UHGV virus genome: UHGV-0179607
DNA: 44,632 nt
Source of the DNA: a virus
Reading direction: 5' to 3' (one strand)
Below the pieces are notes generated by a model. That model was not told the DNA's origin and ran no database searches. It saw only the letters and a list, made by a program, of their open reading frames with translations. Below, one piece after another: positions 4,203-42,584 of this stretch. The first letter of the stretch is position 1. Every line of letters begins with the position of its first letter. Position numbers and translations under genes: made by a program.

Positions 4203-4943
4203 ATGTTAACGAAGAAGGTTAAAAGCGATATCGCCGCACACGTCGCGGCCTGTCTGCCGGAAGAAGCCTGTGGCCTGGTTGTCATGGTGGGTCGTAAGCA
4301 AGTGTTCGTCCCATGTCTGAACGTATTCGAAGACCCGACCGGCGTGCGCTCACGCAAAGACGCTTTTACGATTAGTGATATGGCCTGGATGGATGCCGAG
4401 GATATGGGCGACGTCGTGCGCGTAGTCCACTCGCATCCGGGCCAGCGAGAGCTTACCCCCTCACTGGGCGACGTTAACGGATGCAACGGCAGCGGCGTAG
4501 TCTGGACCATCACTAACGAATATGGCGATTTTATCGAGATCGACCCTGAAGACCCTCCGCTGGTGGGGCGTCGATTTGTTCTCGGAATTACGGATTGTTA
4601 CGGCCTCGTCATGGACTGGCACAAAAAGCAGGGCGTAAACCTGCCAGACTTCCGCGTGCCGTATAACTGGTGGGAGACAGGCGAAAATCTGTATATGGAT
4701 AATTGGTACGGTGCTGGCTTCAGGGAATGCGAGGAGAATACGCCGGGGGCAATGGTCATCATGCAGATTAGCGCGCCAGTGCCTAACCACGCCGGGATAT
4801 TCCTTCCAGGCAACCAACTCCTGCACCATATCTACGGCAGCTTGTCGAGCGTCGTACCCTTCCGGGCAGGATTTTTCCGTGACAATGTGGTTAAATGGGT
4901 CCGTCATAAAGACCTACCGGGGAATATCACAGAATGGCAATGA
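4203..4943 (+). CDS. tail assembly protein, lambda gpK-like (MPN/JAB plus NlpC/P60-like)
   Basis: HSHPG motif typical of JAB/MPN metalloprotease domains in the N-terminal half; C-terminal half with a conserved Cys/His; synteny L-K-I-J. Confidence 0.7.
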   Translation: MLTKKVKSDIAAHVAACLPEEACGLVVMVGRKQVFVPCLNVFEDPTGVRSRKDAFTISDMAWMDAEDMGDVVRVVHSHPGQRELTPSLGDVNGCNGSGVVWTITNEYGDFIEIDPEDPPLVGRRFVLGITDCYGLVMDWHKKQGVNLPDFRVPYNWWETGENLYMDNWYGAGFRECEENTPGAMVIMQISAPVPNHAGIFLPGNQLLHHIYGSLSSVVPFRAGFFRDNVVKWVRHKDLPGNITEWQ

Positions 4944-5551
4944 CAACGTTTAAATTGTACGGCGTCTTAGGGCGTCGATTCGGTAAAGTGCATAGGCTGG
5001 ACTGTTTCACACCGGGCGAAGGAATCACCGGCTTGTGTGTGAAGTTGCCGGGGTTACAAGACTTTTTAATGTCCGCCCACCTGGATAACATGATGTTCAA
5101 GGTGCGCAAAGGCGACCACACGATGACCGGCTATGATGAGCTGGGCGAGTTCCACGGCAACCGCGTAGTTACCATCGCGCCGGTTATGACGGGCGCAAAA
5201 AGAGGGTTGGGACAATTGCTGGCGGGTGTCGCGATCGTTGTGGCGTCGTTCTATACGGGCGGACTTGCTACTGCCGCTTTCGGGGCTTCGGCTGCAACCG
5301 CTGCCGCTATCGGAACGGCGACGTTTTCGTTCGGGATGTCGATGGCGCTGGGTGGCGTTATGCAATTGCTGTCGCCACAACCGAAAGGATTGCAGACAAG
5401 GCAGGACGTGGATAACAAAGCGTCGTACGCGTTCGGCGGGCCAGTGAACACGACCGCGCAAGGTACGGCGCTTGGTGTATTATGGGGCGAGCGTGAGATC
5501 GGCGGCGCTATTATTTCAGCCGGAATCGTAACCGAGGATTTGAACGAATGA
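4934..5551 (+). CDS. tail assembly protein, lambda gpI-like
   Basis: 205 aa between the K-like and J-like genes; hydrophobic Gly/Ala-rich C-terminal segment; overlapping start/stop with both neighbours. Confidence 0.6.
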   Translation: MAMTTFKLYGVLGRRFGKVHRLDCFTPGEGITGLCVKLPGLQDFLMSAHLDNMMFKVRKGDHTMTGYDELGEFHGNRVVTIAPVMTGAKRGLGQLLAGVAIVVASFYTGGLATAAFGASAATAAAIGTATFSFGMSMALGGVMQLLSPQPKGLQTRQDVDNKASYAFGGPVNTTAQGTALGVLWGEREIGGAIISAGIVTEDLNE

Positions 5552-8500
5552 CGATTATTTACGACGTCACGGGCCATAAAGGCGGCGGTGGCAAACAGCA
5601 CACCCCACAGGAGACACCCGATAGCCTGCATTCTCTGGCTAAAATCCGCATCTTGCTTGCGCTGGGAGAAGGTGAGTTCGAAGGTATTCCAGACTCTAAC
5701 GAATTACGGCGGCGCGTATATCTGGACGGAACACCGATCCAGAATGCAGACCTGTCTGAAAACTTCCCTGGGGCGCGTGTGGAGTTCCGCCCAGGAACAC
5801 AGCACCAGGATGTGATCCACGGATTTTCAGCGGTGGAAAGTGAGCAATCTGTCGGCGTAAAACTGGAAAACGGCACGCCGTGGGTGCGCCAGATTAACGA
5901 TACCAGTCTGGACGCCGTTCGCATTCGCATCGGCATTCCGGCCCTGTACACTAACGAAGATAACGGCGACCTGGTGGGCGGGCGCATCGACTATAAGATC
6001 GTTGTGTATACGGATAACGCCGATCCGCGTGAGTTCAGATTCGCCGCCGTTGGTAAAACAATGTCGCTATATGAGCGCGACCACCGCATCGAATTACCAC
6101 CGAACGTGAATACCGGCTGGCGAGTGGAGGTGCACCGCATAACGGCAGACTCCACATCGGCGAAAGTGGTTAATGATATCCGGGTGCAATCCATCACTGA
6201 GATTATCGACGCCCGCCTGCGTTACCCGCTAACCGCGCTGTTGTTTGTGGAGTTCGACGCTAAAGCGTTCCAGAACATCCCGCGCGTGTCCATTAAGTGC
6301 AAAGGTCGCAAAGTTCTAATACCGAACAACTACGACCCGATCAATCATACCTATTCCGGGGACTGGGACGGCACGTTTAAACGCGCATGGACGGATAACC
6401 CTGCGTGGCACTGGTACGATATTTGTATTACTGAGCGCTTCGGCCTCGGTCGGCGTATCAAACCGCAAATGCTAAACCGATACGCGCTCTACCAGATTGC
6501 GCAGCGCTGCGATCAGTTGGTCAGCGACGGCAACGGTGGTCGAGAAATCCGCTTTAAGAATGATATGTACATTCAGTCACAGACGGATGCCTGGACCGTG
6601 CTTAAGGATTTAGCCGCCATCTTCGCCGGAATGACCTGGTGGGGTAACCAGATGTTGAATATCGTCAGTGACCAACCGGTCGCAGCAGTGTCGCACACTA
6701 TCACCAACGCCTCGGTAATTGATGGTCGATTCGACTACGCATCTGGCAGCCAGAAAACTCGCTATTCCACATTTGCGGTCGCATACGGCAACCCGAAGAA
6801 CCACTATGAAGATGCCATCGCAACGGGGCAGCGCGTCGAACTGGTACGCCGCCATAAGATTAACCGTCTTGATATTACGGCGATCGGCTGTACGCGTGAA
6901 TCTGAAGCGCAACGCCGCGGGCACTGGGCACTAATTTCCAACCAGCTTGACCAGCAAGTTAGTTTTAAGGTTGGCATGGAGGGGCTATTCTTTATTCCGG
7001 GTAGCGTAGTCGCGATCGCAGATACAAACATTTCTGGCGGCTTCGAGACACGCGGCGGTCGCCTGTTGTCGGACCCTGGCACGCGTACAGTGCTTAACAC
7101 GGACAGCGAAATCACGTTCCGCCCAGGTGATAAATTCCTGGTACGCACCGATAGCGGTAATGTAGAGACTCGCGAGATCGCCAGCGTCAACGGCAACAAG
7201 GTTACGCTAAAAACCGCACTGGACGCCGACCCGATTCCTGATCAGCCGTTTTGCGTCGATGGCAACGATATCCAGTTGCAGAAGTTCCGCATCACCGACC
7301 TGGAATATGACGACTCTACCAGCACTTTTTCAGTGCGCGGGATCGAGTACAACGATAGCAAATATGATGCCGTTGATAATGGCGCTCGCCTTGATCCGGG
7401 CATCTTTACTCAAGTGCCCGACGGTGTAATGAAGGGGCCAGAGTCCGTAACCATCACCCCGTCGCAGATTTCATCGCAAGGCCAGCTAATCACCAACGTG
7501 GATATTGTATTCCCTCCGGTGAAGGACGCCGTGGTGTATGAAATCCAGTGGCGACGTACCAGCTTGCAGAATATGAAAATCCAGTGGGGTAACGACTGGG
7601 TGAACATCCCCCGCACGGCCTCGAACGGCGCGCACATCCCTAACGTGTTCTCCGGTAACTACCAGGCACGCGTCCGCGCAATCGGTATGGGCGAGATTTC
7701 ATCCCCGTGGGTGTCGTCTGCCATCACGCCGATAGAAGGTCGTCTCGGCGGGCTTAACGCGCCTATCATCACCAACGCGATTTCGGGCCTCCACCAAATT
7801 TTGTGGAAGTGGAACCACAACAACGCCGCGACGGATATTTCGTACACCGAGCTTGAAGTGCGCAAGACCGGTGAAACGGAGTGGAAATTTCTTACCAACG
7901 TCCCATATCCGGGGGCGGAGTATGCGCAAACGTCACTGGAGTTCGGGATCTATCAGCAGTTGCGCGCCCGTGTAGCGGATAAAATCGGCAACCTGTCGGA
8001 CTGGTCGGCCCCGTTTGAAGGGCAGGTGAGTGACAAAGTTGACGAATACATGAAGGGGCTTGATGACGAGTTCTTGACTTCCGAGGACGGTAAACGCTTC
8101 CAGGAAGCGATCGACACCATGCCGCAAGGTATCTATGAGTCTATGCTTACGGACGCCCAGCAGCTATTCAATGCCCGCGCCGAGTATAAAGGGATTTATG
8201 CGGAAATCACGGTGGCGTATAACGTGGCGGCGGACGCGCATAAAGCCGTAGCGCAACTGGAAACGTTGATCGGCACGCGCCTTGATGACGCTGAAGCATC
8301 AATCCACACGTTGCAGACTGCGCAAAGCACACATGAACAAGCGTTCGCCCAGTACCAGCAAACTGTTGCCGCTAAGTTTTCGGAACAGGAAGCAGCCATC
8401 CAGCAGGTACAAACGGCAACGGCGGACGTGGCTGGCGCGCTGGCAGAGTATAAGACCCAGGTCGCGGCGCAGTTCGGACAGCAGTCCGCAGCTATCGAGC

Positions 8501-8994
8501 AGAAGATGACGTCTTCGTTTAACCATGCTGGTGGCAGCGCCACGTACAGTCTTAAGGCTGGCGTGACGTATAACGGGACTTACTATGACGCCGGTATGCA
8601 GCTTTCAGTTGTGACGTCTGGCAACGCAGTTAAATCGCGTATTGCGTTCAAAGCCGACCAGTTCTATATCATGCACCCATCTAATGGGTCGCTTTCGTCC
8701 GCGTTTATCGTTGACGGCGGGCAGGTGTACATCGACACGGCACGCATCAAGGATGCGTCAATCAACTTTGCACAGATCACGGACACGCTGCAATCAAATA
8801 ACTTCGCTTCAGGGTCACGCGGCTGGCGTATCCAGAAAGGCGGCGCTGCGGAGTTTAACGAAGTAACGGTCCGCGGCAACCTGTACGCCACATCCGGTAA
8901 CTTCGGATTCTCTGGTGGGACCGTGACGATTGACAAGACAGGAGTAAACGTGCCGTTACCTGGCGGGGGAAGGGTGAAAGTCGGGACGTGGTAA
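5548..8994 (+). CDS. central tail fibre / host specificity protein, lambda gpJ-like
   Basis: 1148 aa, last gene of the L-K-I-J block; followed by a rho-independent terminator. Confidence 0.8.
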   Translation: MTIIYDVTGHKGGGGKQHTPQETPDSLHSLAKIRILLALGEGEFEGIPDSNELRRRVYLDGTPIQNADLSENFPGARVEFRPGTQHQDVIHGFSAVESEQSVGVKLENGTPWVRQINDTSLDAVRIRIGIPALYTNEDNGDLVGGRIDYKIVVYTDNADPREFRFAAVGKTMSLYERDHRIELPPNVNTGWRVEVHRITADSTSAKVVNDIRVQSITEIIDARLRYPLTALLFVEFDAKAFQNIPRVSIKCKGRKVLIPNNYDPINHTYSGDWDGTFKRAWTDNPAWHWYDICITERFGLGRRIKPQMLNRYALYQIAQRCDQLVSDGNGGREIRFKNDMYIQSQTDAWTVLKDLAAIFAGMTWWGNQMLNIVSDQPVAAVSHTITNASVIDGRFDYASGSQKTRYSTFAVAYGNPKNHYEDAIATGQRVELVRRHKINRLDITAIGCTRESEAQRRGHWALISNQLDQQVSFKVGMEGLFFIPGSVVAIADTNISGGFETRGGRLLSDPGTRTVLNTDSEITFRPGDKFLVRTDSGNVETREIASVNGNKVTLKTALDADPIPDQPFCVDGNDIQLQKFRITDLEYDDSTSTFSVRGIEYNDSKYDAVDNGARLDPGIFTQVPDGVMKGPESVTITPSQISSQGQLITNVDIVFPPVKDAVVYEIQWRRTSLQNMKIQWGNDWVNIPRTASNGAHIPNVFSGNYQARVRAIGMGEISSPWVSSAITPIEGRLGGLNAPIITNAISGLHQILWKWNHNNAATDISYTELEVRKTGETEWKFLTNVPYPGAEYAQTSLEFGIYQQLRARVADKIGNLSDWSAPFEGQVSDKVDEYMKGLDDEFLTSEDGKRFQEAIDTMPQGIYESMLTDAQQLFNARAEYKGIYAEITVAYNVAADAHKAVAQLETLIGTRLDDAEASIHTLQTAQSTHEQAFAQYQQTVAAKFSEQEAAIQQVQTATADVAGALAEYKTQVAAQFGQQSAAIEQKMTSSFNHAGGSATYSLKAGVTYNGTYYDAGMQLSVVTSGNAVKSRIAFKADQFYIMHPSNGSLSSAFIVDGGQVYIDTARIKDASINFAQITDTLQSNNFASGSRGWRIQKGGAAEFNEVTVRGNLYATSGNFGFSGGTVTIDKTGVNVPLPGGGRVKVGTW

Positions 8995-9000
8995 ATGCGA

Positions 9001-9024
9001 TGGGGCCAGATGGCCCCATTTTCA
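9001..9024 (+). terminator. rho-independent terminator after the J-like gene
   Basis: Perfect 8-bp stem TGGGGCCA / TGGCCCCA followed by TTTTC; also lies at the 3' end of the convergent minus-strand gene. Confidence 0.6.
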
Positions 9025-9987
9025 ATACATATTCGGGATGACGAGTAGCGGGGTTGGTACTGCAATATTTTTACTTGGCATCTGGAATTGCTGCCGTGAG
9101 TAGTTGCCGATGACGCGGTTTTTAGCGACGCGCACATTATTACCCGCCATGCGTATGCCGTTCATGCGGACGTGGTTATAGCCACCGTTGTTCTGAATCA
9201 GTGCGCCGGTGTATGAAAGCTGGATCAGGCTGTTTCCAATATTCTGGTCGCCCGTTCCGATGTTAATAGTGCGGTCATATACGAACGGCTTGTTCACCGT
9301 CGAGAACGTAACCTGATTCTGGTTATTCGTCATGGTGATTCCGGCCCCCGGCGTGGGTGGTGTGTTGTTGAATATCACCAAATCCATGTCCACCGAAGCC
9401 GCCACATCGTCGATGCCTCCATAGGACGCGTTGCGGACGATAATACTGCCGCCATCGAAGCCTACTGATACGTTGCCATCATCCCATCGGGCGAACGGAA
9501 CACCGCCAACCGGCAAGGCCATACTACCGTTGACGCGCACGCGCTGTGCGTATCGGCAGGTCATTAGCTTAGACACGTTGGATATGGCGGTGAAGTCCGT
9601 CGAGTTAGCCACCAGTAAACCTGCGTTGCGCGAACCAACCGGCAGCACTTCCATTATGACGCCCGCCCATTGTGGTAAACCAGAGTACGCGCCATACGCA
9701 TCCTCCCCGCGCAGGGTGATACCACTATTACCGTTGCGAGTAACCGACGTAACGTAAAACGGGTCGGGAATTACCAGGGTCTGGTCAAACACCTCAATCA
9801 CTTCTACCGGGCGAGTTAGCGCGACGATGACCTGCGACCCATCCGTAAGCGGGGTGTTAATGGTTAGCGTCTTGTTGGACTGTGCCCGCTGGTTAAAGCT
9901 GGTGCAGTATGACGGCGCGCGGAGTCCCGCGGTTATCTCCATGCGCGGCCTTCCGTCGTTATAGTCGATAAGTATTCCAGCGCCCAT
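9022..9987 (-). CDS. putative receptor-binding protein (beta-helix-like, hypothetical)
   Basis: 321 aa from ATG 9987 with GGGAG SD; Asn/Gly/Thr/Ser-rich repetitive beta-strand composition; translationally coupled to the upstream lipoprotein gene; position between the J-like gene and the lateral tail fibre gene as in T5 (pb5/llp) and T1-like RBP loci. Confidence 0.35.
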   Translation of the reverse strand: MGAGILIDYNDGRPRMEITAGLRAPSYCTSFNQRAQSNKTLTINTPLTDGSQVIVALTRPVEVIEVFDQTLVIPDPFYVTSVTRNGNSGITLRGEDAYGAYSGLPQWAGVIMEVLPVGSRNAGLLVANSTDFTAISNVSKLMTCRYAQRVRVNGSMALPVGGVPFARWDDGNVSVGFDGGSIIVRNASYGGIDDVAASVDMDLVIFNNTPPTPGAGITMTNNQNQVTFSTVNKPFVYDRTINIGTGDQNIGNSLIQLSYTGALIQNNGGYNHVRMNGIRMAGNNVRVAKNRVIGNYSRQQFQMPSKNIAVPTPLLVIPNMY

Positions 9988-9989
9988 TA

Positions 9990-10211
9990 TTACCACTCCC
10001 GTGATTTAACTGATACTGTGCCTGAGAAATTGCCGTCGCTATCTGAAGACAGCCCAGTGAATCGCATGTCTACATCTCCTGCCGGTACTTTTTGCCCGTC
10101 AACGTAGCGCAACATGCAGCTACCGTAAGCAACCGTAACGCAATCGCCGTTGTTGCGTTCTACGGCGCAACCGGACAAAAGGACCGCACAAATCATAATT
10201 AAAGTTTTCAT
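9990..10211 (-). CDS. outer-membrane lipoprotein, Cor/Llp-like superinfection exclusion candidate
   Basis: 73 aa from ATG 10211; N-terminus MKTLIMICAVLLSGC has a signal peptide with lipobox LSGC; own promoter-like sequence upstream; adjacent to the receptor-binding locus. Confidence 0.5.
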   Translation of the reverse strand: MKTLIMICAVLLSGCAVERNNGDCVTVAYGSCMLRYVDGQKVPAGDVDMRFTGLSSDSDGNFSGTVSVKSREW

Positions 10212-30311: not shown

Positions 30312-30432
30312 GTGCGACGATCCGGGATATGCTTCAGCATAACCGCTTTGAGATAGGCGGTCGGGTATTTCGCAATTACTTCGTGGCGCGTGCATGGGCG
30401 CGCCATATTGGAAAACCGGAAGGGGCAATTCG

Positions 30433-30720
30433 ATGCTACACGATTTGATATATTGGTTTGGGTTGGGGTGCGCGACACTCTTTGCTATGGTGCTGGCGCT
30501 GTTGGTGTGGGTCTTCCTGATTTGGCCCGCTGTGGAAGCTGCCAGCATTACCCGCATGACGTTCCAGATATACAAGCGCCGTGGAATCACGGAGCACCCG
30601 ACCAGGTTGCGCATGTGGTGGCTGTGGTATCGCGATATGATAGGGGGCCGGATGTTCGAGGCCGTCCGATCGGACGGGTGGGAGTGGAAAGGCGTCGGCA
30701 AGTGGTCCATTTTCGATTAA
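30433..30720 (+). CDS. small membrane protein (hypothetical)
   Basis: 95 aa from ATG 30433; hydrophobic stretch LIYWFGLGCATLFAMVLALLVWVFLIWPAV; a 46-aa ORF (30308-30448) overlaps its start. Confidence 0.35.
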   Translation: MLHDLIYWFGLGCATLFAMVLALLVWVFLIWPAVEAASITRMTFQIYKRRGITEHPTRLRMWWLWYRDMIGGRMFEAVRSDGWEWKGVGKWSIFD

Positions 30721-30738
30721 TTATGCAAGCGTGATATA

Positions 30739-30772
30739 GTCCCAGTGAGATAAAACTTACTGGGACTTTTTT
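30739..30772 (+). terminator. rho-independent terminator/attenuator abutting the holin start codon
   Basis: Stem GTCCCAGT / ACTGGGAC (loop 12 nt) followed by TTTTTT ending immediately before ATG 30773. Confidence 0.5.
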
Positions 30773-31063
30773 ATGGATAAGCTAAACGAGTGGTTATTCG
30801 CCCTTGCGTGTCTTGCTGGTGGCTTCGTAGGCGCACGCATTCATGGCGAGGCAACGAAAGGGCCGTTGAACTTCGTTTTATATATCGTGGTTGGCTTCCT
30901 GTGTGCCATATTTGGTGCGCCAGCTATTGCGGAGTGGTCTGGTTTGTCGGGTGAGCGTACTGTCGCCGGATTGGGCTTCGTAACTGCCATCTTCTGGATG
31001 CCAATAGCTGACCGGATCCGGGAGACAATTGCGACGCTACACCTTCCGGGGGGCGCAAAATGA
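30773..31063 (+). CDS. holin-like membrane protein
   Basis: 96 aa with three hydrophobic segments; immediately upstream of the endolysin gene. Confidence 0.5.
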   Translation: MDKLNEWLFALACLAGGFVGARIHGEATKGPLNFVLYIVVGFLCAIFGAPAIAEWSGLSGERTVAGLGFVTAIFWMPIADRIRETIATLHLPGGAK

Positions 31064-31305
31064 TTATCACCGTCCTGTTGTTTGTTATCATAGGGGCTTC
31101 GTCCCTGTTTAACGTGTATGCGCCGTCCGTCCAGGACGGCATCTTAGGCCGGGTGTTGTATCTGTTAACGGCAATGGTCTGTATTATCGGATTGTTGCAA
31201 ACAGGAGACGTATCAGATACCACCTGGACCGCGTTAATCTGGCTGTTTGCATTGCGCACCCTGCGTAATGCTGTTTTGAATGGGGTAAAACATGCGATTC
31301 AGTGA
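31060..31305 (+). CDS. second holin/antiholin-like membrane protein
   Basis: 81 aa, hydrophobic segments; ATGA overlap with the preceding gene; directly upstream of the endolysin. Confidence 0.4.
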   Translation: MIITVLLFVIIGASSLFNVYAPSVQDGILGRVLYLLTAMVCIIGLLQTGDVSDTTWTALIWLFALRTLRNAVLNGVKHAIQ

Positions 31306-31783
31306 CAACGGTCTACGATTTACGGCAGCCTGGGAGGCATTCAGCCCAGTGCCGTATTTCGCGACCAAGAAAGAGCAGGCCCGCGGCCTGTACACCTGGG
31401 GCTATGGTCACACCGGCACTAATCCGCCACGAAGCATTACCCGTGCGGAAGCGCTGGAACTGCTCAAGCGAGATGTGGCGTATGCCGAGGACTGGGTGAA
31501 CAAATACGCACATCCGAGCATTAACCAGGCGCAATTCGACGCGCTGGTGGATCTGGTAATCAACGCCGGTCCTGGTCCGATCGTGCCGGATGACGTCGCG
31601 AACGATTTCGATGATGCGGTGCGACTGGGCGACTGGGCGAAGGTCCGTGCTATTCTGCCGCAGTTCCGCAAGCAAGGCGGATCGGTGCTCTTAGGTCTGG
31701 TCCGTCGCGCAATCGGCAGGCAAGCACTATTCGATGGTAAGCAGTGGGACGTTGCCGAGAAAATCGGGCGTAACGCAGCATAA
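31292..31783 (+). CDS. endolysin, GH24 lysozyme (T4 lysozyme-like)
   Basis: WEAF...GLYTWGYGHT and ITRAEALELLKRDV...QFDALVDLVINAG align with the catalytic Glu/Asp/Thr region of T4-type lysozymes; no N-terminal signal-anchor. Confidence 0.8.
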   Translation: MRFSDNGLRFTAAWEAFSPVPYFATKKEQARGLYTWGYGHTGTNPPRSITRAEALELLKRDVAYAEDWVNKYAHPSINQAQFDALVDLVINAGPGPIVPDDVANDFDDAVRLGDWAKVRAILPQFRKQGGSVLLGLVRRAIGRQALFDGKQWDVAEKIGRNAA

Positions 31784-31798
31784 TACGAGGAACACAGT

Positions 31799-32212
31799 AT
31801 GTTAAAAAGCATTCTTGATCATAACGCCGACGCACTTGCTGCACTGGCTAAAACCGAAGACCCTGGCGCACGCGCTATCATCGCGGACACTATCAGCCAT
31901 GCAGGCGTCTTTGACGCGAAGCTGCCGAGTGTGCCGGAAAGAAAGCCCGTGGCAAGTGCGACCGTAACCATCACCCCAGTGTCAGCCGCAGTTGGTGCGA
32001 AGGCCACCGCTTCTGTTGCCGTCCTGCCATCTGACGCAACTAACAAGGCCGGGAAGTGGGTGTCCGCAAACCCTGACTGCGCGGCAGTCAACCAGACTAC
32101 CGGCGAAATCACAGCAAAATCGGAGGGTGGCGTCCACATCTTTTGGGTGGCATCCGATGGAGGCGGGGCGATGGCGTCCGCCATCTTCACCGTAACGGGA
32201 GCAGGAAAATAA
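31799..32212 (+). CDS. Ig-like (Big_2-type) domain protein
   Basis: 137 aa; C-terminal ATVTITP...LPSDATNK...VNQTTGEITA...VTG resembles bacterial Ig-like group 2 domains; followed by a terminator. Confidence 0.45.
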   Translation: MLKSILDHNADALAALAKTEDPGARAIIADTISHAGVFDAKLPSVPERKPVASATVTITPVSAAVGAKATASVAVLPSDATNKAGKWVSANPDCAAVNQTTGEITAKSEGGVHIFWVASDGGGAMASAIFTVTGAGK

Positions 32213-32219
32213 AACCACA

Positions 32220-32244
32220 AGCCCGGTTAATTCCGGGCTTTTTA
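32220..32244 (+). terminator. rho-independent terminator
   Basis: Stem AGCCCGG / CCGGGCT, loop TTAATT, followed by TTTTT. Confidence 0.6.
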
Positions 32245-34740: not shown

Positions 34741-36261
34741 ATGACCGTTAACGTTGACAACCAGCACCCGCTCTATGCGCGCATCGCGCCAGAGTGGAAA
34801 ATGATCCGGGATTGTGTAGCAGGTGAGCGCGCCGTGAAGGCGTGCGGCCCTTTGTATCTGCCACATCCAGCCAGCGGGGACAACACCGACCCTAAATCGC
34901 GGGCGCGGTATAAAGCATATAAGCAACGCGCTGTATTCCTGAACGCTACCGCCCGCACACTAAACGCGCTGTTAGGTGTTGCCTTTGCGAAACCGGTAAG
35001 TCTGGACCTTTCCGGGGCAATGGCTGACCTGATTGACGACGTAGACGGCAGCGGCATGCCATTACCTCAACTCCTGCGCGGTGCTATGTCGGAAGTGCTG
35101 CAATCGGGCCGCGCGGGCTTTATGGTGGACTATGACCGACAGGCGCATTTTGACGAACTGGGAAACGTAGTGCCGCAGACAGCCGCTGAGATGGCGATGC
35201 ATCGCCCGCTTATCCGCCTGTATACGGCAGAACAGATCATCAACTGGCGGCAGACCCACGGTGTCGACACGCTAATTGTGCTGAAGGAAACGGACGAAAT
35301 CAGCACCGAAGACCCGGACGACTTCGCAAACCACGAAGTAACGATTTGGACCGAGCTTCGCATGATTGACGGCAAGGCACACGCCCGCCGCTGGTTTTAC
35401 AACGCTGACACGTCCGAGGTGCAGATGGACTTGCCGCGGGGCTTCACCCGCACCGACCTTGTACCATTGGTGGATGCTGCCGGTAACGCGCTTACGCAAC
35501 TGCCCTTTTGCTGGTGTGGCGCGGTGGACAACAACGCGACACCGGACGCCGCACCGCTGGCGGATATTGCGTCCATCAACATTAAGCACTACAACGCCGA
35601 AGCGGACGTCGCCGAGATTGCGCACATCGTGGGACAGCCTACGCTCATTACAACCGGCCTGACTCAATCATGGGCGGACAAGAACCTGAAAGGAGGCATC
35701 GCGCTCGGGGCAACTAAGGGCGTTATCCTGGGCCAGAACATGGACGCTAAACTTCTTCAGGCGGAGGAGCGCAACCTGTCTGTTGCACTGTGTGAGCGCC
35801 GCGAATTGCAAATGGCTAAACTGGGCGCGGCCCTGGTCGAGAAAGGGACCGCACCTAAGACGGCAACTGAGGCGGCTTATGATGCGCAGACTGATAACAG
35901 TATCCTGTCGCTGATTGCCGGTAATGTTGAGAAGGCTTTCAACCGTGCGCTGCAAATCGTCCAGCTATTCACGGGGGACACCGCAACCCAGCGCGTAACG
36001 CTGAATAAGTTTTACACCGAGATCACGGTTGACGCGCAACTTATGACCGCGATGATGGCAGGTGTGCAGACCGGTACTGTCCGACTGGCTGACTTTATCA
36101 AGTGGATGATGGCCCAGGGCGTCATTGATGACTCGCAGACCGTCGAGCAGGTGGAAGACGAGTTGCGAAATCAGAATCCATTGCCTCAAATGTCCCCGGA
36201 TACGGTAGAATCCCCCGAAGAAGACCCGGACAAGGTAGCGGACGATGGCGAGAACAATTAA
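34741..36261 (+). CDS. portal protein
   Basis: 506 aa immediately downstream of the large terminase; acidic C-terminus. Confidence 0.65.
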   Translation: MTVNVDNQHPLYARIAPEWKMIRDCVAGERAVKACGPLYLPHPASGDNTDPKSRARYKAYKQRAVFLNATARTLNALLGVAFAKPVSLDLSGAMADLIDDVDGSGMPLPQLLRGAMSEVLQSGRAGFMVDYDRQAHFDELGNVVPQTAAEMAMHRPLIRLYTAEQIINWRQTHGVDTLIVLKETDEISTEDPDDFANHEVTIWTELRMIDGKAHARRWFYNADTSEVQMDLPRGFTRTDLVPLVDAAGNALTQLPFCWCGAVDNNATPDAAPLADIASINIKHYNAEADVAEIAHIVGQPTLITTGLTQSWADKNLKGGIALGATKGVILGQNMDAKLLQAEERNLSVALCERRELQMAKLGAALVEKGTAPKTATEAAYDAQTDNSILSLIAGNVEKAFNRALQIVQLFTGDTATQRVTLNKFYTEITVDAQLMTAMMAGVQTGTVRLADFIKWMMAQGVIDDSQTVEQVEDELRNQNPLPQMSPDTVESPEEDPDKVADDGENN

Positions 36262-37348
36262 TCAATATATGGCGGATCGCATGATTCGCCGTCACATCTT
36301 CACCCAGCGCCTGAGCAATGACCAGGCGCGGAGGGTGTTGGCTATGTGGGAGAAGTTCCGGCCAACGTTACTGGGTAAGCTGACCGAGTTACTTGATGGC
36401 AAAAAGTCCATGAACAACAAGGCACTTACCACTCTGTTAACGCAACTCGACAAGACCGTTAAAACAGAACTGCGCACCGAGTTTAAGGTACTGGCGGAAA
36501 GCCTTCAGGAGTTCGCCGACACCGAGGCTGATTATCTCGCCGACACATTAACGGCAGCGATCCAGCCTGTGGTTGCCGTACCGGCGGTCGAGGTGGTTGG
36601 CGTAGTGACCGGTGCGCAGATCGCAGCGACGGCAATGAAAAACCCGTTCCAGGGTAATACGATGATGCAATGGCCTGACTCACTTTCTGAGTGGACCAGG
36701 ACGCAGATCGGTAATCAGGTGCGGGCGGGATTCATCCAGGGCAAGCCAACGATGGAAATTATCGCGGACGTGAGGCGCGCGCTAGGCGGTCGTAGTGCGC
36801 AAGCTATCTCGAGCGTTGTTAAATCCGCAGTAAACCACTATGCGGCGACTGCCCGCGAACTAATGGTGAAAGCAAATGACGATATTCTCGAAGGTCGCCA
36901 ATGGTTATCTACATTGGACACGCATACTTCTCCCATGTGCCAGCTACGCGATCGCCTGTTTTATCCGGTTGATGTTACTCCCGACACCAAAGGAAAGCGC
37001 GGCGGGAAAGTGGTGGCTGGATCACAATATGGCGCTGGTCCGGGCAAGCTACATTATTGCTGCCGCTCGACGGAGACGTGGAAAGTCAAAGGTATGGAAG
37101 ATTGGCCCAGTGGTAAGCGTCCGGCACTGAAGGCCGACGCAGGCAGGTTGCTGAGTGAGCAGGTAGACGCGCAGACAGATTTCTTCTCATGGGTGCAGCG
37201 CCAGCCGCGCCACATCCTGGAGGAATTATATGGGGTGCAACGCGCCGACCAGATTATGCGCGGCGTGAAAGTGCCGAAGATGTTCACCGATTCAGGTGAA
37301 CTGATGACTATCGCACAGCTTAAAAACCGGGGGTTATGGCGTGATTAA
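36245..37348 (+). CDS. head morphogenesis protein (Mu F / SPP1 gp7-like)
   Basis: 367 aa directly after the portal gene with overlapping start. Confidence 0.5.
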   Translation: MARTINQYMADRMIRRHIFTQRLSNDQARRVLAMWEKFRPTLLGKLTELLDGKKSMNNKALTTLLTQLDKTVKTELRTEFKVLAESLQEFADTEADYLADTLTAAIQPVVAVPAVEVVGVVTGAQIAATAMKNPFQGNTMMQWPDSLSEWTRTQIGNQVRAGFIQGKPTMEIIADVRRALGGRSAQAISSVVKSAVNHYAATARELMVKANDDILEGRQWLSTLDTHTSPMCQLRDRLFYPVDVTPDTKGKRGGKVVAGSQYGAGPGKLHYCCRSTETWKVKGMEDWPSGKRPALKADAGRLLSEQVDAQTDFFSWVQRQPRHILEELYGVQRADQIMRGVKVPKMFTDSGELMTIAQLKNRGLWRD

Positions 37349-37670
37349 GTATGCAGCGATTGGACTGGTTATTGGTCTGGCGGTAGGATTCTGGCTAGGT
37401 GACTCCTATCGCGCTGGCGTAGTGGCGGAGGCGGCGCAAGAAGCGCAAGCACAAGCCCAACGGCAGCAAACTAAAGTTGTGGAGCGCTCCGTGCAGGCCG
37501 AACAGGCCCGCGACGTAGAATACCGGACTATCACGAAAGAGGTTGTTAAATATGTTACGCGCCCTAACCGCCCTGATTGTAGTTTTGATGCTGAGCGCGT
37601 GCGGATCAAGCAACGCGCCGTTGATGCCGCTAACGGAGTCGGCACTGCGACCGCCGTGCAAGTTCGATAG
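37341..37670 (+). CDS. i-spanin (Rz-like inner-membrane spanin component)
   Basis: GTG start with GGGGG SD; N-terminal transmembrane segment AAIGLVIGLAVGFWL followed by an Ala/Gln-rich helical periplasmic region; overlapped out of frame by a lipoprotein gene. Confidence 0.5.
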   Translation: MIKYAAIGLVIGLAVGFWLGDSYRAGVVAEAAQEAQAQAQRQQTKVVERSVQAEQARDVEYRTITKEVVKYVTRPNRPDCSFDAERVRIKQRAVDAANGVGTATAVQVR

Positions 37671-37782
37671 CCCGTCCGCAGACCCCGACGAGGATTTGAT
37701 GATTGACGTGAAAAATATGGAATGCGGGGCGAAGCTAAGGGCGCAGGTGCTGGAGTTGCAGCAAATAATTAAGGGGCCGTAA
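37552..37782 (+). CDS. o-spanin (Rz1-like outer-membrane lipoprotein)
   Basis: ATG 37552 with AAGAGG SD; signal peptide MLRALTALIVVLMLSAC with lipobox LSAC; Pro-rich mature part; overlaps the 3' part of the i-spanin gene in another frame. Confidence 0.55.
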   Translation: MLRALTALIVVLMLSACGSSNAPLMPLTESALRPPCKFDSPSADPDEDLMIDVKNMECGAKLRAQVLELQQIIKGP

Positions 37783-37794
37783 TAGCCCCTTTTT
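37772..37794 (+). terminator. rho-independent terminator between convergent genes
   Basis: Stem AGGGGC / GCCCCT, loop CGTAATA, followed by TTTT; includes the o-spanin stop codon. Confidence 0.55.
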
Positions 37795-37796
37795 CA

Positions 37797-38561
37797 TTAG
37801 CGCGGAATGCCGCAAATCTCGTTGAGTGTTTTCACGTCCAGCGCCACCGCCGTGGATTTTGGCTTGTCCGGGTATGGGATGAATTGCTCAACTTCAGGCC
37901 ATGCCTTAATCAGCTTCTTGTCAGTATTGTGCAGGTCCAGCACACCGGTAACGGTGAGTTTGAACGCGTCATACTTAGCACGCAACTCACGGCGGGCCTT
38001 ATCGTTACGGTCCAGGCGCTTGCAGAAGTCATGGTCCGCAGGGTAGACTATGCGACCGCGTGGCTTATATATCGGCAGCGCTTTCCCGTCCTCGTCCACT
38101 TCGCACACTGAAGCTAACATAATTTCCTCATACCCCGGTACGATATCGCCGAGATCGGGAGATAGCGTATTCATGTATTTATATTCCCAGTATCCTCGAT
38201 GTACTCGGTATTGGTATCCGTCGCCGCTCAATGACAAGGTGCGAACATTTCCGCCCGCGTTGATTTCGAAAGTGGCGTCGTAAACGCTGCCGATACCTTT
38301 CGGGCGGTCGGTGTTATAACTATACGTCGCCTTGTTGGTGTATACACAGACGCCGTACATCTGCGACGGGTCATCGCCGATTGCTTCAATTCGCGCGAGT
38401 AGCTCGGCGAACGTGCGAATGCCTTCCGGCATACAGTCAAGCGTAATGGCATAAGCCAGGTCGCGCGAGTCCATCATGATTTGTTTGGCTTCGGTTGCGA
38501 TTTCGTGGTCGCGCAGGATGTTAGCCAGAATCTGATTTTTAATGTCTTTAGTCAGTCTCAT
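37797..38561 (-). CDS. hypothetical protein (reverse-oriented cassette gene 2)
   Basis: 254 aa; GAGGA SD preceded by a GGGGC-GAAA-GCCCC hairpin; opposite orientation to the flanking morphogenesis genes; no motif recognised. Confidence 0.5.
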   Translation of the reverse strand: MRLTKDIKNQILANILRDHEIATEAKQIMMDSRDLAYAITLDCMPEGIRTFAELLARIEAIGDDPSQMYGVCVYTNKATYSYNTDRPKGIGSVYDATFEINAGGNVRTLSLSGDGYQYRVHRGYWEYKYMNTLSPDLGDIVPGYEEIMLASVCEVDEDGKALPIYKPRGRIVYPADHDFCKRLDRNDKARRELRAKYDAFKLTVTGVLDLHNTDKKLIKAWPEVEQFIPYPDKPKSTAVALDVKTLNEICGIPR

Positions 38562-38600
38562 TTTTGTGTCCTCGTTGTTGGGGCTTTCGCCCCGTTTGGC

Positions 38601-38915
38601 TTAGTTAAATTTGATGTTGCCATCGGTGGAAGTTAAGCGAGCGCATACAGCCTCAACGGCATCGACGCACATGAAATCGTTAAAGGCTTCTACCAGGGCG
38701 TTGATGAAAGATGCCGGAACCAGGCCGCAAGCCGGATTATCGAATGCCGCAGAGTTGATCGCCGCTTTTGCCGCTTCGGAAGCATTCATGCTCTGGCACA
38801 GATTCAGCGCTTCCGCGTTACGCATTGCGTGAAATGTAAAGGTATTCGCTACGGTAGCTTTATTGAAACGGGCCATTGCGGCGTCTACTGGAGTTGCTAC
38901 GGTCATGTTAGTCAT
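38601..38915 (-). CDS. hypothetical protein (reverse-oriented cassette gene 1)
   Basis: About 104 aa from ATG 38915 (MTNMTVATP...) with AAGGA SD; Ala-rich; track start at 38975 lies upstream of the predicted -10. Confidence 0.45.
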   Translation of the reverse strand: MTNMTVATPVDAAMARFNKATVANTFTFHAMRNAEALNLCQSMNASEAAKAAINSAAFDNPACGLVPASFINALVEAFNDFMCVDAVEAVCARLTSTDGNIKFN

Positions 38916-38950
38916 TTTGTTTTCCTTCATATCTCTGTTGGTGTGCAACC

Positions 38951-38980
38951 AATATAGTGCAACCAACATACGCAATGCAA
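38951..38980 (-). promoter_or_regulatory. sigma70-like promoter for the reverse cassette
   Basis: Minus strand TTGCAT - 18 bp - TATATT followed by GGTTGCACACCAACA, identical over 22 bp to the promoter at 28822-28843. Confidence 0.4.
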
Positions 38981-41030: not shown

Positions 41031-41531
41031 ATGTATGGCGACCCGCAAACATTTGTTGTTTATGCCGCGGCGCGAGGCGTTGAAATTACGCAGAGCGACG
41101 CAACGCGACACCTTACCATTGTTAATGACTTCCTTAACGGCATCGACTGGATCGGCGAACAAGCGGACCCGACCGGAATTGACGCATGGCCCCGCGTCAA
41201 CTACCCGTCAGACGGTAAGCCGGTGCAAAACACGCTTACTGAAGATTTGACAGTAGTTCCGGCGGGGCAGATTGTAGACTTCGCATCAATCCCTGTTGCC
41301 GTTGAGCAAGCAGTTTACCGGCTGGCAATGTTGGTGGCGGACGATGTTGATATTTCTCCGGTCAGCGATGGAAAGGAGACTATCCGTGAAACGGTAGGCC
41401 CGATCACGATGGAGTATGACGCCGCGACGATTGGTAGCGGTGTGTCTTTCCCGTGGTGGGATGGCTTGCTGGGCTACTGGGTGAATGTAGACGGCAACGC
41501 AGCGGGTAATTTTGACGTATTCCGGGGGTGA
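41031..41531 (+). CDS. head-tail connector/adaptor protein (putative)
   Basis: 166 aa from ATG 41031 with AGGAG SD; first gene after the capsid terminator; call from synteny only. Confidence 0.4.
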   Translation: MYGDPQTFVVYAAARGVEITQSDATRHLTIVNDFLNGIDWIGEQADPTGIDAWPRVNYPSDGKPVQNTLTEDLTVVPAGQIVDFASIPVAVEQAVYRLAMLVADDVDISPVSDGKETIRETVGPITMEYDAATIGSGVSFPWWDGLLGYWVNVDGNAAGNFDVFRG

Positions 41532-41532
41532 T

Positions 41533-41649
41533 ATGAATCCTGCATTACTGGCGGCTATTATCGCCGCAAATACTAAACGCCAACCGGAACAGGAACCAGC
41601 GCCAGAACCGGAACCACCGGTACAGGAGGATGAAAATGGCGGGCTTTAA
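41533..41649 (+). CDS. small Pro/Glu-rich protein (not in ORF track)
   Basis: 38-aa ORF MNPALLAAIIAANTKRQPEQEPAPEPEPPVQEDENGGL; tightly packed between neighbours. Confidence 0.3.
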   Translation: MNPALLAAIIAANTKRQPEQEPAPEPEPPVQEDENGGL

Positions 41650-41989
41650 TTACACGGGATTAAAGCGGAAAGTCAATCCGCTGATTAAAAAGTTCGGCAT
41701 GACCGTTACGGTTACGCGTCCTGGGTCGGTTGACCGCGTAGACGGCGACGAAGTGGTCATCCCTGCGACCTCGTTTGACGTCATCGGGCTTCGCGAGGAG
41801 TACAAGCCGAGCGAGATCGACGGTACGCGTATCGTTGCCGGGGATGTGAAGTTTTTATGCCAGGCCGTCAAGGAAGTAAAGGTCGGAGATTTGGTTAGCC
41901 TGAACAATACAGACTACCGGGTTATCAACCCCAACCCCCTGCAACCGGCGGGCATTACCATGCTGTTTCAATTACAGCTAAGGGGCTAA
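41636..41989 (+). CDS. head-tail joining protein (putative)
   Basis: 117 aa from ATG 41636 with GGAGG SD; synteny. Confidence 0.4.
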   Translation: MAGFNYTGLKRKVNPLIKKFGMTVTVTRPGSVDRVDGDEVVIPATSFDVIGLREEYKPSEIDGTRIVAGDVKFLCQAVKEVKVGDLVSLNNTDYRVINPNPLQPAGITMLFQLQLRG

Positions 41990-41990
41990 C

Positions 41991-42584
41991 GTGGCTGAGG
42001 TCTACTCATTCGCGGCCACCATTGCAACATGGGTGGATAAGACGAAGGAGAACAACGATAAGGCGGTGCGGGCGTACGGTATGCAAATACTCGGACGCCT
42101 TATTGAGATCTCCCCGGTGGGCGACCCTCGCCGGTGGAAGATTAACAAGGCTTATGCGATGGCCCGCCAGCACGCGAACAAGGTGAACGCCGCACAGCGC
42201 CGCAAGAATGGCGGCAAACTGAAGCGCGGGCAGAAGAAGCACGCCAGTGTGCTCATCTCATTTAAAACTAAAAACGGCAACGTCACGTTCCGCCAACGTG
42301 GCTGGGCTGCGAAGAATTACACCGGCGGACGCTTCCGGGGGAACTGGCAGGTTACGTTCGACCGCCCGGCTGTCGGCGCTATTGACCGCGTGGACAAGGC
42401 CGGAACGGCGACATTAGCCGCGGGGCGTGAAGTGCTGGCGCATTACGATTCCGGTGAATACGGGTCTATCTGGTTTACTAACAATGTGCCGTATGCGCAG
42501 CGACTTGAGTATGGCTGGAGTAAACAAGCGCCCGCGGGGATTGTTCGCGTCGTAGCGGCTGAAATTAATTCTAAGGTGAAATAA
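41991..42584 (+). CDS. head-tail joining / tail completion protein (putative)
   Basis: 197 aa, GTG start with AGGGG SD; synteny. Confidence 0.4.
   Translation: MAEVYSFAATIATWVDKTKENNDKAVRAYGMQILGRLIEISPVGDPRRWKINKAYAMARQHANKVNAAQRRKNGGKLKRGQKKHASVLISFKTKNGNVTFRQRGWAAKNYTGGRFRGNWQVTFDRPAVGAIDRVDKAGTATLAAGREVLAHYDSGEYGSIWFTNNVPYAQRLEYGWSKQAPAGIVRVVAAEINSKVK

Follow-up and report, generated by a model that had tools for sequence, protein, structure and literature searches.

Where the spanin of this phage is encoded, and whether the position of its genes carries functional meaning, is the question raised by two overlapping orfs at 37341–37782 of UHGV virus genome UHGV-0179607. The window, i.e. 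the whole 44,632-nt stretch analysed, is the complete genome of an E. coli phage of the Dhillonvirus group (HK578-like siphovirus). A sequence-only reading had described the two orfs as an Rz/Rz1-type spanin pair lying well apart from the holin and endolysin genes, and had regarded such a split lysis module as unusual. The pair is very likely the two-component spanin of Dhillonvirus, a member of the ‘Jersey’ family of overlapped spanins; for this group of phages, both the pair and its distance from the other lysis genes can be found in existing annotations and publications.

The overlapping gene pair at 37341–37782

The i-spanin gene (37341–37670, + strand; 109 aa, GTG start), identified from the ORF list and hydropathy, directly follows the head morphogenesis gene (SPP1 gp7/Mu F-like; 36245–37348, + strand; phrog_241 ‘head morphogenesis’, E 2.4e-116) and overlaps its stop by 8 nt (GTGATTAA), confirming the proposed adjacency. 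Its product has a single hydrophobic segment (residues ~1–20, nt 37341–37400; Kyte-Doolittle 17-residue mean 1.95) and is otherwise polar, giving the topology expected of an i-spanin, with one predicted N-terminal membrane helix and the rest in the periplasm. The periplasmic part comprises a long helix, a linker containing the only Cys of the protein (Cys80, nt 37578–37580), a second short helix and a variable tail. In an AlphaFold2 single-sequence model, which is of low confidence (pLDDT 58.5) and was used for secondary structure alone, helices span residues 3–72 and 84–97, with a loop at 73–83 (DSSP). A largely alpha-helical periplasmic domain of two helices and a linker, as in spanins, is thus predicted by the model, in agreement with the published prediction for this i-spanin subfamily (PMC6139136), and the membrane-anchored helical protein of the sequence-only reading is borne out to this extent. 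The i-spanin matches phrog_2536 (‘Rz-like spanin’, E 1.9e-36), and C80, V68, K70, Y71 and P75 are invariant among Dhillonvirus, Jersey, K1G and metagenomic relatives. Searching the PDB by sequence gave chance matches only (E > 0.1), with no solved relative of the i-spanin.

The o-spanin gene (37552–37782, + strand; 76 aa, ATG start) is in the +1 reading frame with respect to the i-spanin gene. Residues 1–16 form a signal peptide (MLRALTALIVVLMLSA/CGS) ending in the lipobox LSA/C17 (Cys codon 37600–37602), with Gly at +2, i.e. a predicted signal peptidase II lipobox, and a +2 residue other than Asp as the signal for outer-membrane sorting, both expected of an o-spanin. The LSAC motif and the two further Cys reported previously were found as described, the latter being Cys36 (37657–37659) and Cys58 (37723–37725). 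The mature protein would have 60 aa and a C-terminus that looks helical (C-terminal segment, GAKLRAQVLELQQIIKGP). Matches to two ‘Rz-like spanin’ families were obtained (phrog_5672, E 4e-26; phrog_1267, E 7e-12). C17, C36, C58, P26, P35 and R63 are invariant in eight diverse homologues, among the Dhillonvirus loci examined the lipobox reads L[ST]AC, and all relatives retain the lipidated Cys. C80 of the i-spanin and C36 and C58 of the o-spanin would provide the periplasmic Cys for the homotypic intermolecular disulfides predicted for spanins. A Shine-Dalgarno-like AAAGAGG, read from the sequence, is found within the i-spanin coding sequence (37536–37542, + strand), 9 nt upstream of the o-spanin ATG. 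A TTG at 37543 was rejected as an alternative start, as it directly abuts the Shine-Dalgarno and is missing in 7/17 related loci, while the ATG is present in all.

The two genes share 119 nt (37552–37670, + strand), in which the conserved C-terminal part of the i-spanin is encoded together with the signal peptide and N-terminal linker of the o-spanin, confirming the out-of-frame overlap; overlapping genes with the o-spanin in the +1 frame are an architecture expected of spanins. Six-frame lists commonly contain short orfs that overlap, and several GenBank records annotate only one gene of the pair, as might be the case if the lipoprotein orf were a chance open frame in and after a single real gene. 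However, codon-position nucleotide diversity among 18 distinct Dhillonvirus sequences argues against this. Diversity peaks at i-frame codon position 3 in the part encoding only the i-spanin (0.208 vs 0.073 and 0.035) and at o-frame position 3 in the part encoding only the o-spanin (0.205 vs 0.089 and 0.026), while the overlap is less diverse overall (0.075 vs about 0.106), with a fall to about 0.099 at the third positions of both frames. This is the signature of dual coding, with purifying selection on both frames. The orf, its lipobox and all three Cys are also intact in every relative, down to 22–47% identity, and the PHROG match (4e-26) and a good Shine-Dalgarno at the right spacing point the same way. 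A chance orf, already refuted by the codon-position diversity and by conservation in diverse homologues, is therefore extremely improbable.

Holin-endolysin unit and search for other spanins

The other lysis genes lie where the sequence-only reading had put them (30773–31783), as confirmed by PHROG and Pfam. They consist of a first holin gene (30773–31063, + strand; 96 aa; phrog_2359 holin, E 1.5e-30), a second holin or antiholin gene (31060–31305, + strand; 81 aa; phrog_2508 holin, E 1e-26) and a gene encoding a soluble GH24 endolysin (31292–31783, + strand; 163 aa; PF00959 Phage_lysozyme, E 2e-19; phrog_7 endolysin), in the translation of which no hydrophobic N-terminal SAR segment was seen. 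The end of the endolysin gene is separated from the i-spanin start by 5558 nt, and the gene that follows it encodes an Ig-like Big_2 protein rather than a spanin.

A lipobox and signal-peptide filter applied to all six frames of the 44.6-kb window was passed by two orfs, the o-spanin orf and an orf at 9990–10211 (− strand) with a weak Cor-like match, located beside the receptor-binding locus. The latter was rejected as a unimolecular spanin as it has no C-terminal hydrophobic segment, and the six-frame scan of the whole window revealed no unimolecular spanin of the T1 gp11 type (N-terminal lipobox plus C-terminal TMD). A second two-component spanin near the endolysin was likewise rejected, the lipobox scan having given only these two orfs. 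The proposal that the pair is the only one in the window, with none beside the endolysin, therefore holds.

The location of the pair inside the head gene block and outside the lysis unit, the lack of spanin matches in Pfam and NCBIfam, and the fact that the spanin function of this family is a prediction from sequence and gene context would also fit a membrane protein and lipoprotein with another role (such as Cor- or Llp-like superinfection exclusion or receptor masking, or an accessory function in virion assembly), the outer membrane being disrupted by other means. Against this, the same PHROG families occupy the canonical last slot of contiguous holin-endolysin cassettes in two IMG/VR contigs (L021 and L022) and in a further relative (L024), the architecture is the textbook layout of overlapped spanins, and the conserved periplasmic Cys fit the published spanin rule (PMC6139136). 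The window also carries the separate Cor-like lipoprotein orf beside the receptor-binding locus, and has no alternative spanin. Such a different role thus appears very improbable, and the earlier assessment of the pair as a convincing spanin is upheld by the PHROG matches, by conservation of the lipobox and Cys across genera and by selection on both frames.

Targeting signals, homology and gene context predict a spanin function, and for topology, complex formation, disulfides and membrane fusion we infer a course modelled on lambda Rz/Rz1 and T4 PseT.3/PseT.2. The N-terminal helix of the 109-aa i-spanin would insert in the inner membrane, with its mostly helical domain reaching into the periplasm. 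The 76-aa o-spanin would be lipidated at Cys17, cut by signal peptidase II and, because the +2 residue is Gly and not Asp, sorted to the outer membrane by Lol. Across the periplasm, the two proteins would bind one another through their C-terminal regions, with homotypic intermolecular disulfides formed by the single conserved periplasmic Cys of the i-spanin and the two of the o-spanin. The meshwork of the peptidoglycan would hold the complex in place until release of the GH24 endolysin (31292–31783) by the holins (30773–31305); with the wall degraded, spanin complexes could fuse the inner and outer membranes, completing lysis.

Gene order and transcriptional context

In the window the two holin genes and the endolysin gene are followed by the terminase, portal and head morphogenesis genes, the spanin genes and the scaffold gene, in this order; the spanin pair closes the terS-terL-portal-head morphogenesis block. 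The 8-nt stop/GTG overlap suggests co-transcription and translational coupling with the head morphogenesis gene. A terminator-like G+C hairpin (37771–37791; found on both strands in the scan) lies between the convergent o-spanin gene and a minus-strand Nmad5 gene, its stem taking in the last o-spanin codons (fold −14.2 kcal/mol, z −1.83). A clean T-run is present on the + strand only (TTTCATTAGC after the two T of the stem; − strand, AATTATTTGC), and terminators are annotated at the same place in the HK578 GenBank record. Between about 32700 and this hairpin no strong hairpin-plus-T-run site was found, only short weak matches. Two further hairpins (30738–30767 and 32219–32240) bracket the holin-endolysin unit, suggesting separate transcription units. 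Promoter-like sites are not enriched (11 vs 9.0 ± 3.3 in shuffles). It is plausible that the spanins are expressed along with the packaging and head genes, because of the 8-nt start/stop overlap and because no strong terminator-like site precedes 37771–37791; the evidence for co-transcription with the head genes consists of this gene overlap and consensus hairpin scans.

The view that a split lysis module is unusual is not borne out by other genomes. The same layout was found in the matching Dhillonvirus GenBank records (158 records) and in the Salmonella phage Jersey (Guernseyvirinae), where the spanin genes gp09/gp10 lie between the head morphogenesis and scaffold genes, and the spanins of E. 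coli phage K1G (gp06/gp07) occupy the same slot. For the Guernseyvirinae phage Schulenberg, separation of the spanins from the other lysis genes is stated explicitly (PMC6763661), and the T4 spanin genes are likewise separate (PMC6139136). In contrast, both PHROG families are found directly downstream of holin-holin-endolysin in L021 and L022, and spanin homologues follow the endolysins in L024 and in another relative, L023. Because in more distant relatives these spanin families are part of an unbroken lysis cassette, we read the placement as a lineage-typical permutation of gene order, standard for Dhillonvirus and Guernseyvirinae.

Conservation of the 8-nt overlap and GTG start in 17/17 Dhillonvirus loci examined, retention of the slot between head morphogenesis and scaffold genes in Jersey and K1G, and the hairpins around the holin-endolysin unit could indicate an adaptive value of the location behind the head morphogenesis gene, with coupling setting spanin dosage or delaying synthesis relative to holin and endolysin. 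This seems unlikely, as homologous spanins occupy the ordinary cassette position in relatives, the Jersey and K1G pairs are uncoupled from the head morphogenesis gene by a Hoc-like decoration gene and a gap, and descent alone predicts conservation of gene order within a lineage. In addition, in the lysis model of the Young laboratory timing is determined by holin triggering and spanins accumulate beforehand, and in lambda the lysis and structural genes are carried on one late transcript. Less probable again is a functionally selected relocation of the spanins from the end of the cassette (as in L021 and L022) to the packaging/head operon, whether to tie dosage or timing to capsid assembly or through use of the neighbouring minus-strand cargo slot, which is variable, as a hotspot for recombination. 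Because the holin sets lysis timing, the position of the pair is best explained by neutral permutation of the late genes rather than by a new regulatory design.

Relation to known spanins

As a functional class, the ‘Rz/Rz1-type’ label given by the sequence-only reading is appropriate. Like lambda Rz/Rz1, the pair consists of an inner-membrane protein, anchored by an N-terminal TMD and helical in its periplasmic domain, and a small outer-membrane lipoprotein encoded in the +1 frame, and both have periplasmic Cys. As a sequence family the label does not apply: a Pfam scan of both proteins gave no family at E ≤ 0.1, so that neither belongs to the lambda Rz or Rz1 models, and an NCBIfam scan gave no significant match for either. 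Because neither library provides a sequence link, the pair is, as far as these profile searches can tell, a functional analogue or very distant relative of lambda Rz/Rz1, not a member of the same family. The overlap is partial here, whereas in lambda the Rz1 gene lies entirely within Rz. The lambda pair directly follows S and R; Rz has 153 aa, and mature Rz1 is a proline-rich protein of 40 aa.

T4 PseT.3/PseT.2 is also a two-component spanin, with genes that lie apart from those for the holin (t) and the endolysin (e) (PMC6139136, Fig. 8 legend). The T4 i-spanin is similarly short (117 aa), and a C-terminal helix is predicted for the T4 o-spanin, which also depends on two Cys for its function. 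In T4, however, the two spanin genes do not overlap but lie apart, and no homology to the window pair was detected in any search run.

Matches to Jersey, K1G, SETP7 and wksl3 were obtained by tblastn. The Guernseyvirinae pairs (Jersey, K1G and Schulenberg) are homologous to that of the window (i-spanin 36–41%, o-spanin 46–47% identity) and likewise overlap in +1. They differ in having longer i-spanins (128 aa) with a polyQ-rich helix, and the overlap in Jersey is 155 nt (PMC6139136), vs 119 nt here.

Among Dhillonvirus records in GenBank, ‘i-spanin/o-spanin’ labels are found at the identical position in PaulFeyerabend, and spanins are also annotated in Bas84, YD-2008.s, BMA1 and JLBYU60, while in many others one or both genes are ‘hypothetical protein’. 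Identification of the pair is thus a useful annotation fix, of small importance beyond correct annotation, and a reminder that where a spanin seems to be missing beside the endolysin the whole genome should be searched before a phage is called spanin-less. No new biological question is opened, because the family, the overlapped architecture and the separation from holin and endolysin are already documented.

The closest counterparts are those placed in the overlapped ‘Jersey’ family by Kongari et al. 2018 (PMC6139136), which includes HK578, JL1 and SSL-2009a (94–97% DNA identity) as well as EP23, EK99P-1, SO-1, Jersey, K1G and others; a subfamily with a shorter, two-helix i-spanin, and two constant Cys in the o-spanin, are described there. 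The i-spanin of phage BMA1 is 99.1% identical to that of the window, while in some Dhillonviruses the i-spanin has 102 aa, vs 109 aa here, with a shorter C-terminal tail. HK578, JL1, SSL-2009a and the window share the overlapped +1 architecture, the short two-helix i-spanin and the two constant periplasmic Cys of the o-spanin, the genes of family members occupy the same site behind the head morphogenesis gene, and the window pair matches these known members in all matters of substance.

Anatomy and coding evidence of the spanin pair

The i-spanin candidate (37341–37670, +; 109 aa) has a GTG start, sharing 8 nt with the stop-codon end of the head morphogenesis gene (36245–37348), a hydrophobic stretch confined to residues 1–20 and a single Cys, at position 80. 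The o-spanin candidate (37552–37782, +; ATG start, 76 aa) overlaps it by 119 nt in the +1 frame, with AAAGAGG 9 nt 5′ of the ATG. Its N-terminus, MLRALTALIVVLMLSA followed directly by CGSS, comprises a basic n-region, a hydrophobic core and a lipobox (L-S-A-C17) with Gly at +2, and further Cys are found at 36 and 58. The ORF lister's pick for the o-spanin start, TTG at 37543, was rejected: it abuts the SD and is missing in 7/17 relatives, and the start is therefore placed at the ATG (37552). The overlapping ORFs, lipobox and two extra Cys described in the sequence-only reading are all present at the coordinates it gave.

Searches of PHROGs matched the 109-aa protein to phrog_2536 (1.9e-36) and the 76-aa protein to phrog_5672 (4e-26) and phrog_1267 (7e-12), all three annotated ‘Rz-like spanin’. 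Neither protein had a significant match in Pfam or NCBIfam, which leaves the pair unconnected by sequence to lambda Rz/Rz1 proper; a PDB sequence search found no solved relative. A single-sequence AlphaFold2 model of the i-spanin, of low confidence (pLDDT 58.5), has a helix at 3–72 that takes in the TMD and a long periplasmic helix, a loop (73–83) containing Cys80, a second helix (84–97) and a disordered tail. This matches the two-helix organisation published for the short subfamily of i-spanins in the overlapped ‘Jersey’ family, treated by Kongari et al. together with two constant o-spanin Cys (PMC6139136); HK578, JL1 and SSL-2009a are among the phages they place in that family.

Three lines of evidence indicate that the pair is more than a chance occurrence. 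When all six frames of the window were scanned for lipoprotein signals (ORFs ≥40 aa with a charged n-region and a hydrophobic core, free of acidic residues, plus a lipobox), only two loci passed, one of them the o-spanin ORF. Across 18 distinct Dhillonvirus sequences (the window, two GenBank loci and 15 IMG/VR loci), nucleotide diversity at codon positions 1/2/3 was 0.073/0.035/0.208 in the i-only part (i-frame; mean 0.105), 0.089/0.026/0.205 in the o-only part (o-frame; mean 0.108) and 0.099/0.028/0.099 in the overlap (i-frame; mean 0.075). Position 1 of the i-frame is position 3 of the o-frame, so both third positions in the overlap are held to ~0.099, with the minimum (0.028) at the i2/o1 site, which is the expected signature of purifying selection on both overlapping frames. 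Every relative examined retains the two ORFs, the lipobox with its lipidated Cys, the two additional o-spanin Cys and the single i-spanin Cys, even where identity falls to 30–40% for the i-spanin and 22–47% for the o-spanin.

In a subset of Dhillonvirus contigs (L013, L016, L017 and L018; 2501–2809) the i-spanin is 102 aa rather than 109 aa, with a shorter and different C-terminal tail and no change in the overlapping o-spanin. Such a variant agrees with the published view of the i-spanin's extreme C-terminus as dispensable.

Other lysis genes and candidates for a second spanin

Two holins and a GH24 endolysin (phrog_2359, phrog_2508; PF00959, 2e-19) are located at 30773–31783 (+), as the sequence-only reading had it, upstream of the pair and with 5,558 nt between the endolysin end and the i-spanin. 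A canonical spanin adjoining the endolysin was looked for and none was found. Directly after the endolysin lies a gene for a Big_2 Ig-like domain protein (31799–32212, +; PF02368, 8.7e-11) with no targeting signal. It resembles a decoration protein of the capsid or tail, and its gene is inside the holin-endolysin unit bracketed by hairpins at 30738–30767 and 32219–32240 (the second −15.6 kcal/mol, z −3.6), an odd site for such a protein. The only other lipobox locus in the window encodes a 73-aa lipoprotein (MKTLIMICAVLLSG-C; 9990–10211, −), rejected as a spanin: it has no C-terminal hydrophobic segment or TMD, and it gives a weak match to Cor (superinfection exclusion; phrog_1119, 5e-4). Its probable role is to block the receptor or exclude superinfection. 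This gene adjoins one for a 324-aa ‘membrane protein’ (phrog_1265) beside the receptor-binding locus, the two (9022–10211, −) lying just downstream of a 1148-aa ORF (5548–8994), a putative tail-tip gene. Directly upstream of the strong hairpin preceding the holins, a 108-aa protein (phrog_2531, no assigned function; 30394–30720, +) contains a hydrophobic segment and may be a further membrane protein tied to lysis control.

Linked cassettes in distant homologues, function and expression

Distant homologues were found by tblastn and a scan of IMG/VR. In contigs L021 and L022 (1221–2957 in each), two holins (phrog_198, phrog_217) and a GH19-type endolysin (phrog_181) are followed directly by phrog_2536 and phrog_5672 spanins, which puts these at the end of a contiguous lysis cassette, the canonical place for spanins; a putative small terminase subunit ORF lies further downstream. 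This shows an ancestral or alternative linked arrangement. In L023 and L024 the homologues come after other endolysin types. Because homologues follow endolysins in L021–L024, their lysis-cassette association supports a predicted spanin function and indicates that the Dhillonvirus position reflects rearranged gene order, and is not evidence of a different function. PHROG families, targeting signals, two-frame selection and these homologues together bear out the original spanin interpretation.

Beyond the directly observed ORFs, signals, homology, two-frame selection and synteny, the mode of action would follow lambda and T4. The i-spanin would insert N-in/C-out, the o-spanin would be lipidated at Cys17 with Lol-dependent sorting to the outer membrane, their C-termini would touch across the periplasm, homotypic disulfides could form via C80, C36 and C58, and inner and outer membranes would be fused once the endolysin removes peptidoglycan.

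In 17/17 Dhillonvirus loci the GTG of the i-spanin and the stop of the head morphogenesis gene overlap (GTGATTAA). Between ~32700 and the spanins, a consensus scan gave short weak matches only and no strong terminator-like hairpin. At the end of the pair, a G+C hairpin (37771–37791; −14.2 kcal/mol) with a T-run after it on the + strand, where the HK578 record annotates terminators, would close off the block from the minus-strand gene that converges on it. Promoter-like sites were not enriched in a consensus scan. Because of the start/stop overlap and this hairpin layout, co-transcription of the spanins with the packaging and head genes is suggested; the earlier proposal of a late structural transcript is thus a reasonable hypothesis, the scans reporting consensus matches only. 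In the Young laboratory model of phage lysis, timing is up to the holin, and spanins merely build up in the envelope ahead of lysis. A single late transcript carries both lysis and structural genes in lambda, so a position among late structural genes calls for no special explanation.

Two minus-strand genes (37797–38975) separate the o-spanin from the scaffold gene, encoding an Nmad5 ‘nucleotide modification associated domain 5’ protein (37797–38561; PF18757, 1.5e-57) and a 124-aa protein with no assigned function (38601–38975; phrog_24635). The content of this slot varies among Dhillonviruses (a single 423-nt gene in HK578, a single 765-nt gene in PaulFeyerabend), and it looks like a site for moron or anti-defence cargo.

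Gene order in Dhillonvirus and Guernseyvirinae

By megablast, 36200–38700 matched 158 GenBank phage records, nearly all from Escherichia/Shigella phages in Dhillonvirus, a genus of HK578-like siphoviruses (80–99% identity), with JLBYU60 and Zumzum the top matches (94.6%); the window (44,632 bases) has the length of a full Dhillonvirus genome. MG065648.1 (‘Campylobacter phage A144’) and one ‘Acinetobacter’ record carry ~99% identical Dhillonvirus spanin DNA despite their non-enterobacterial host attribution, and are probably contaminated or mislabelled entries. From ~28.9 kb the + strand order is holin, holin, endolysin, Ig-domain protein, small ORF, terS, terL, portal, head morphogenesis and the spanin pair, then the two minus-strand genes, scaffold and major head genes.

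The split lysis module had been called unusual, a claim that finds no support, since this is the ordinary, documented order in Dhillonvirus and Guernseyvirinae relatives; the layout is neither unusual nor new. In the PaulFeyerabend record (BASEL collection), ‘i-spanin’ (4548–4856) and ‘o-spanin’ (4759–4989) directly follow the minor capsid/head morphogenesis gene, and spanin labels are at the same place in Bas84, YD-2008.s, BMA1, Gluttony, Envy, JLBYU60 and others in GenBank. In the Dhillonvirus vB_EcoS_P78 the holins are genes 31–32, the endolysin gene 33 and the Rz-like spanin gene 40 (PMC12677095). Jersey has holin, holin and endolysin at 41182–42221 and spanins at 7501–7996, between head morphogenesis/Hoc-like genes and the scaffold gene, the same slot occupied by the pair in K1G. 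For phage Schulenberg the separation is stated in print (PMC6763661). T4, too, encodes its spanins at a distance from t and e (PMC6139136).
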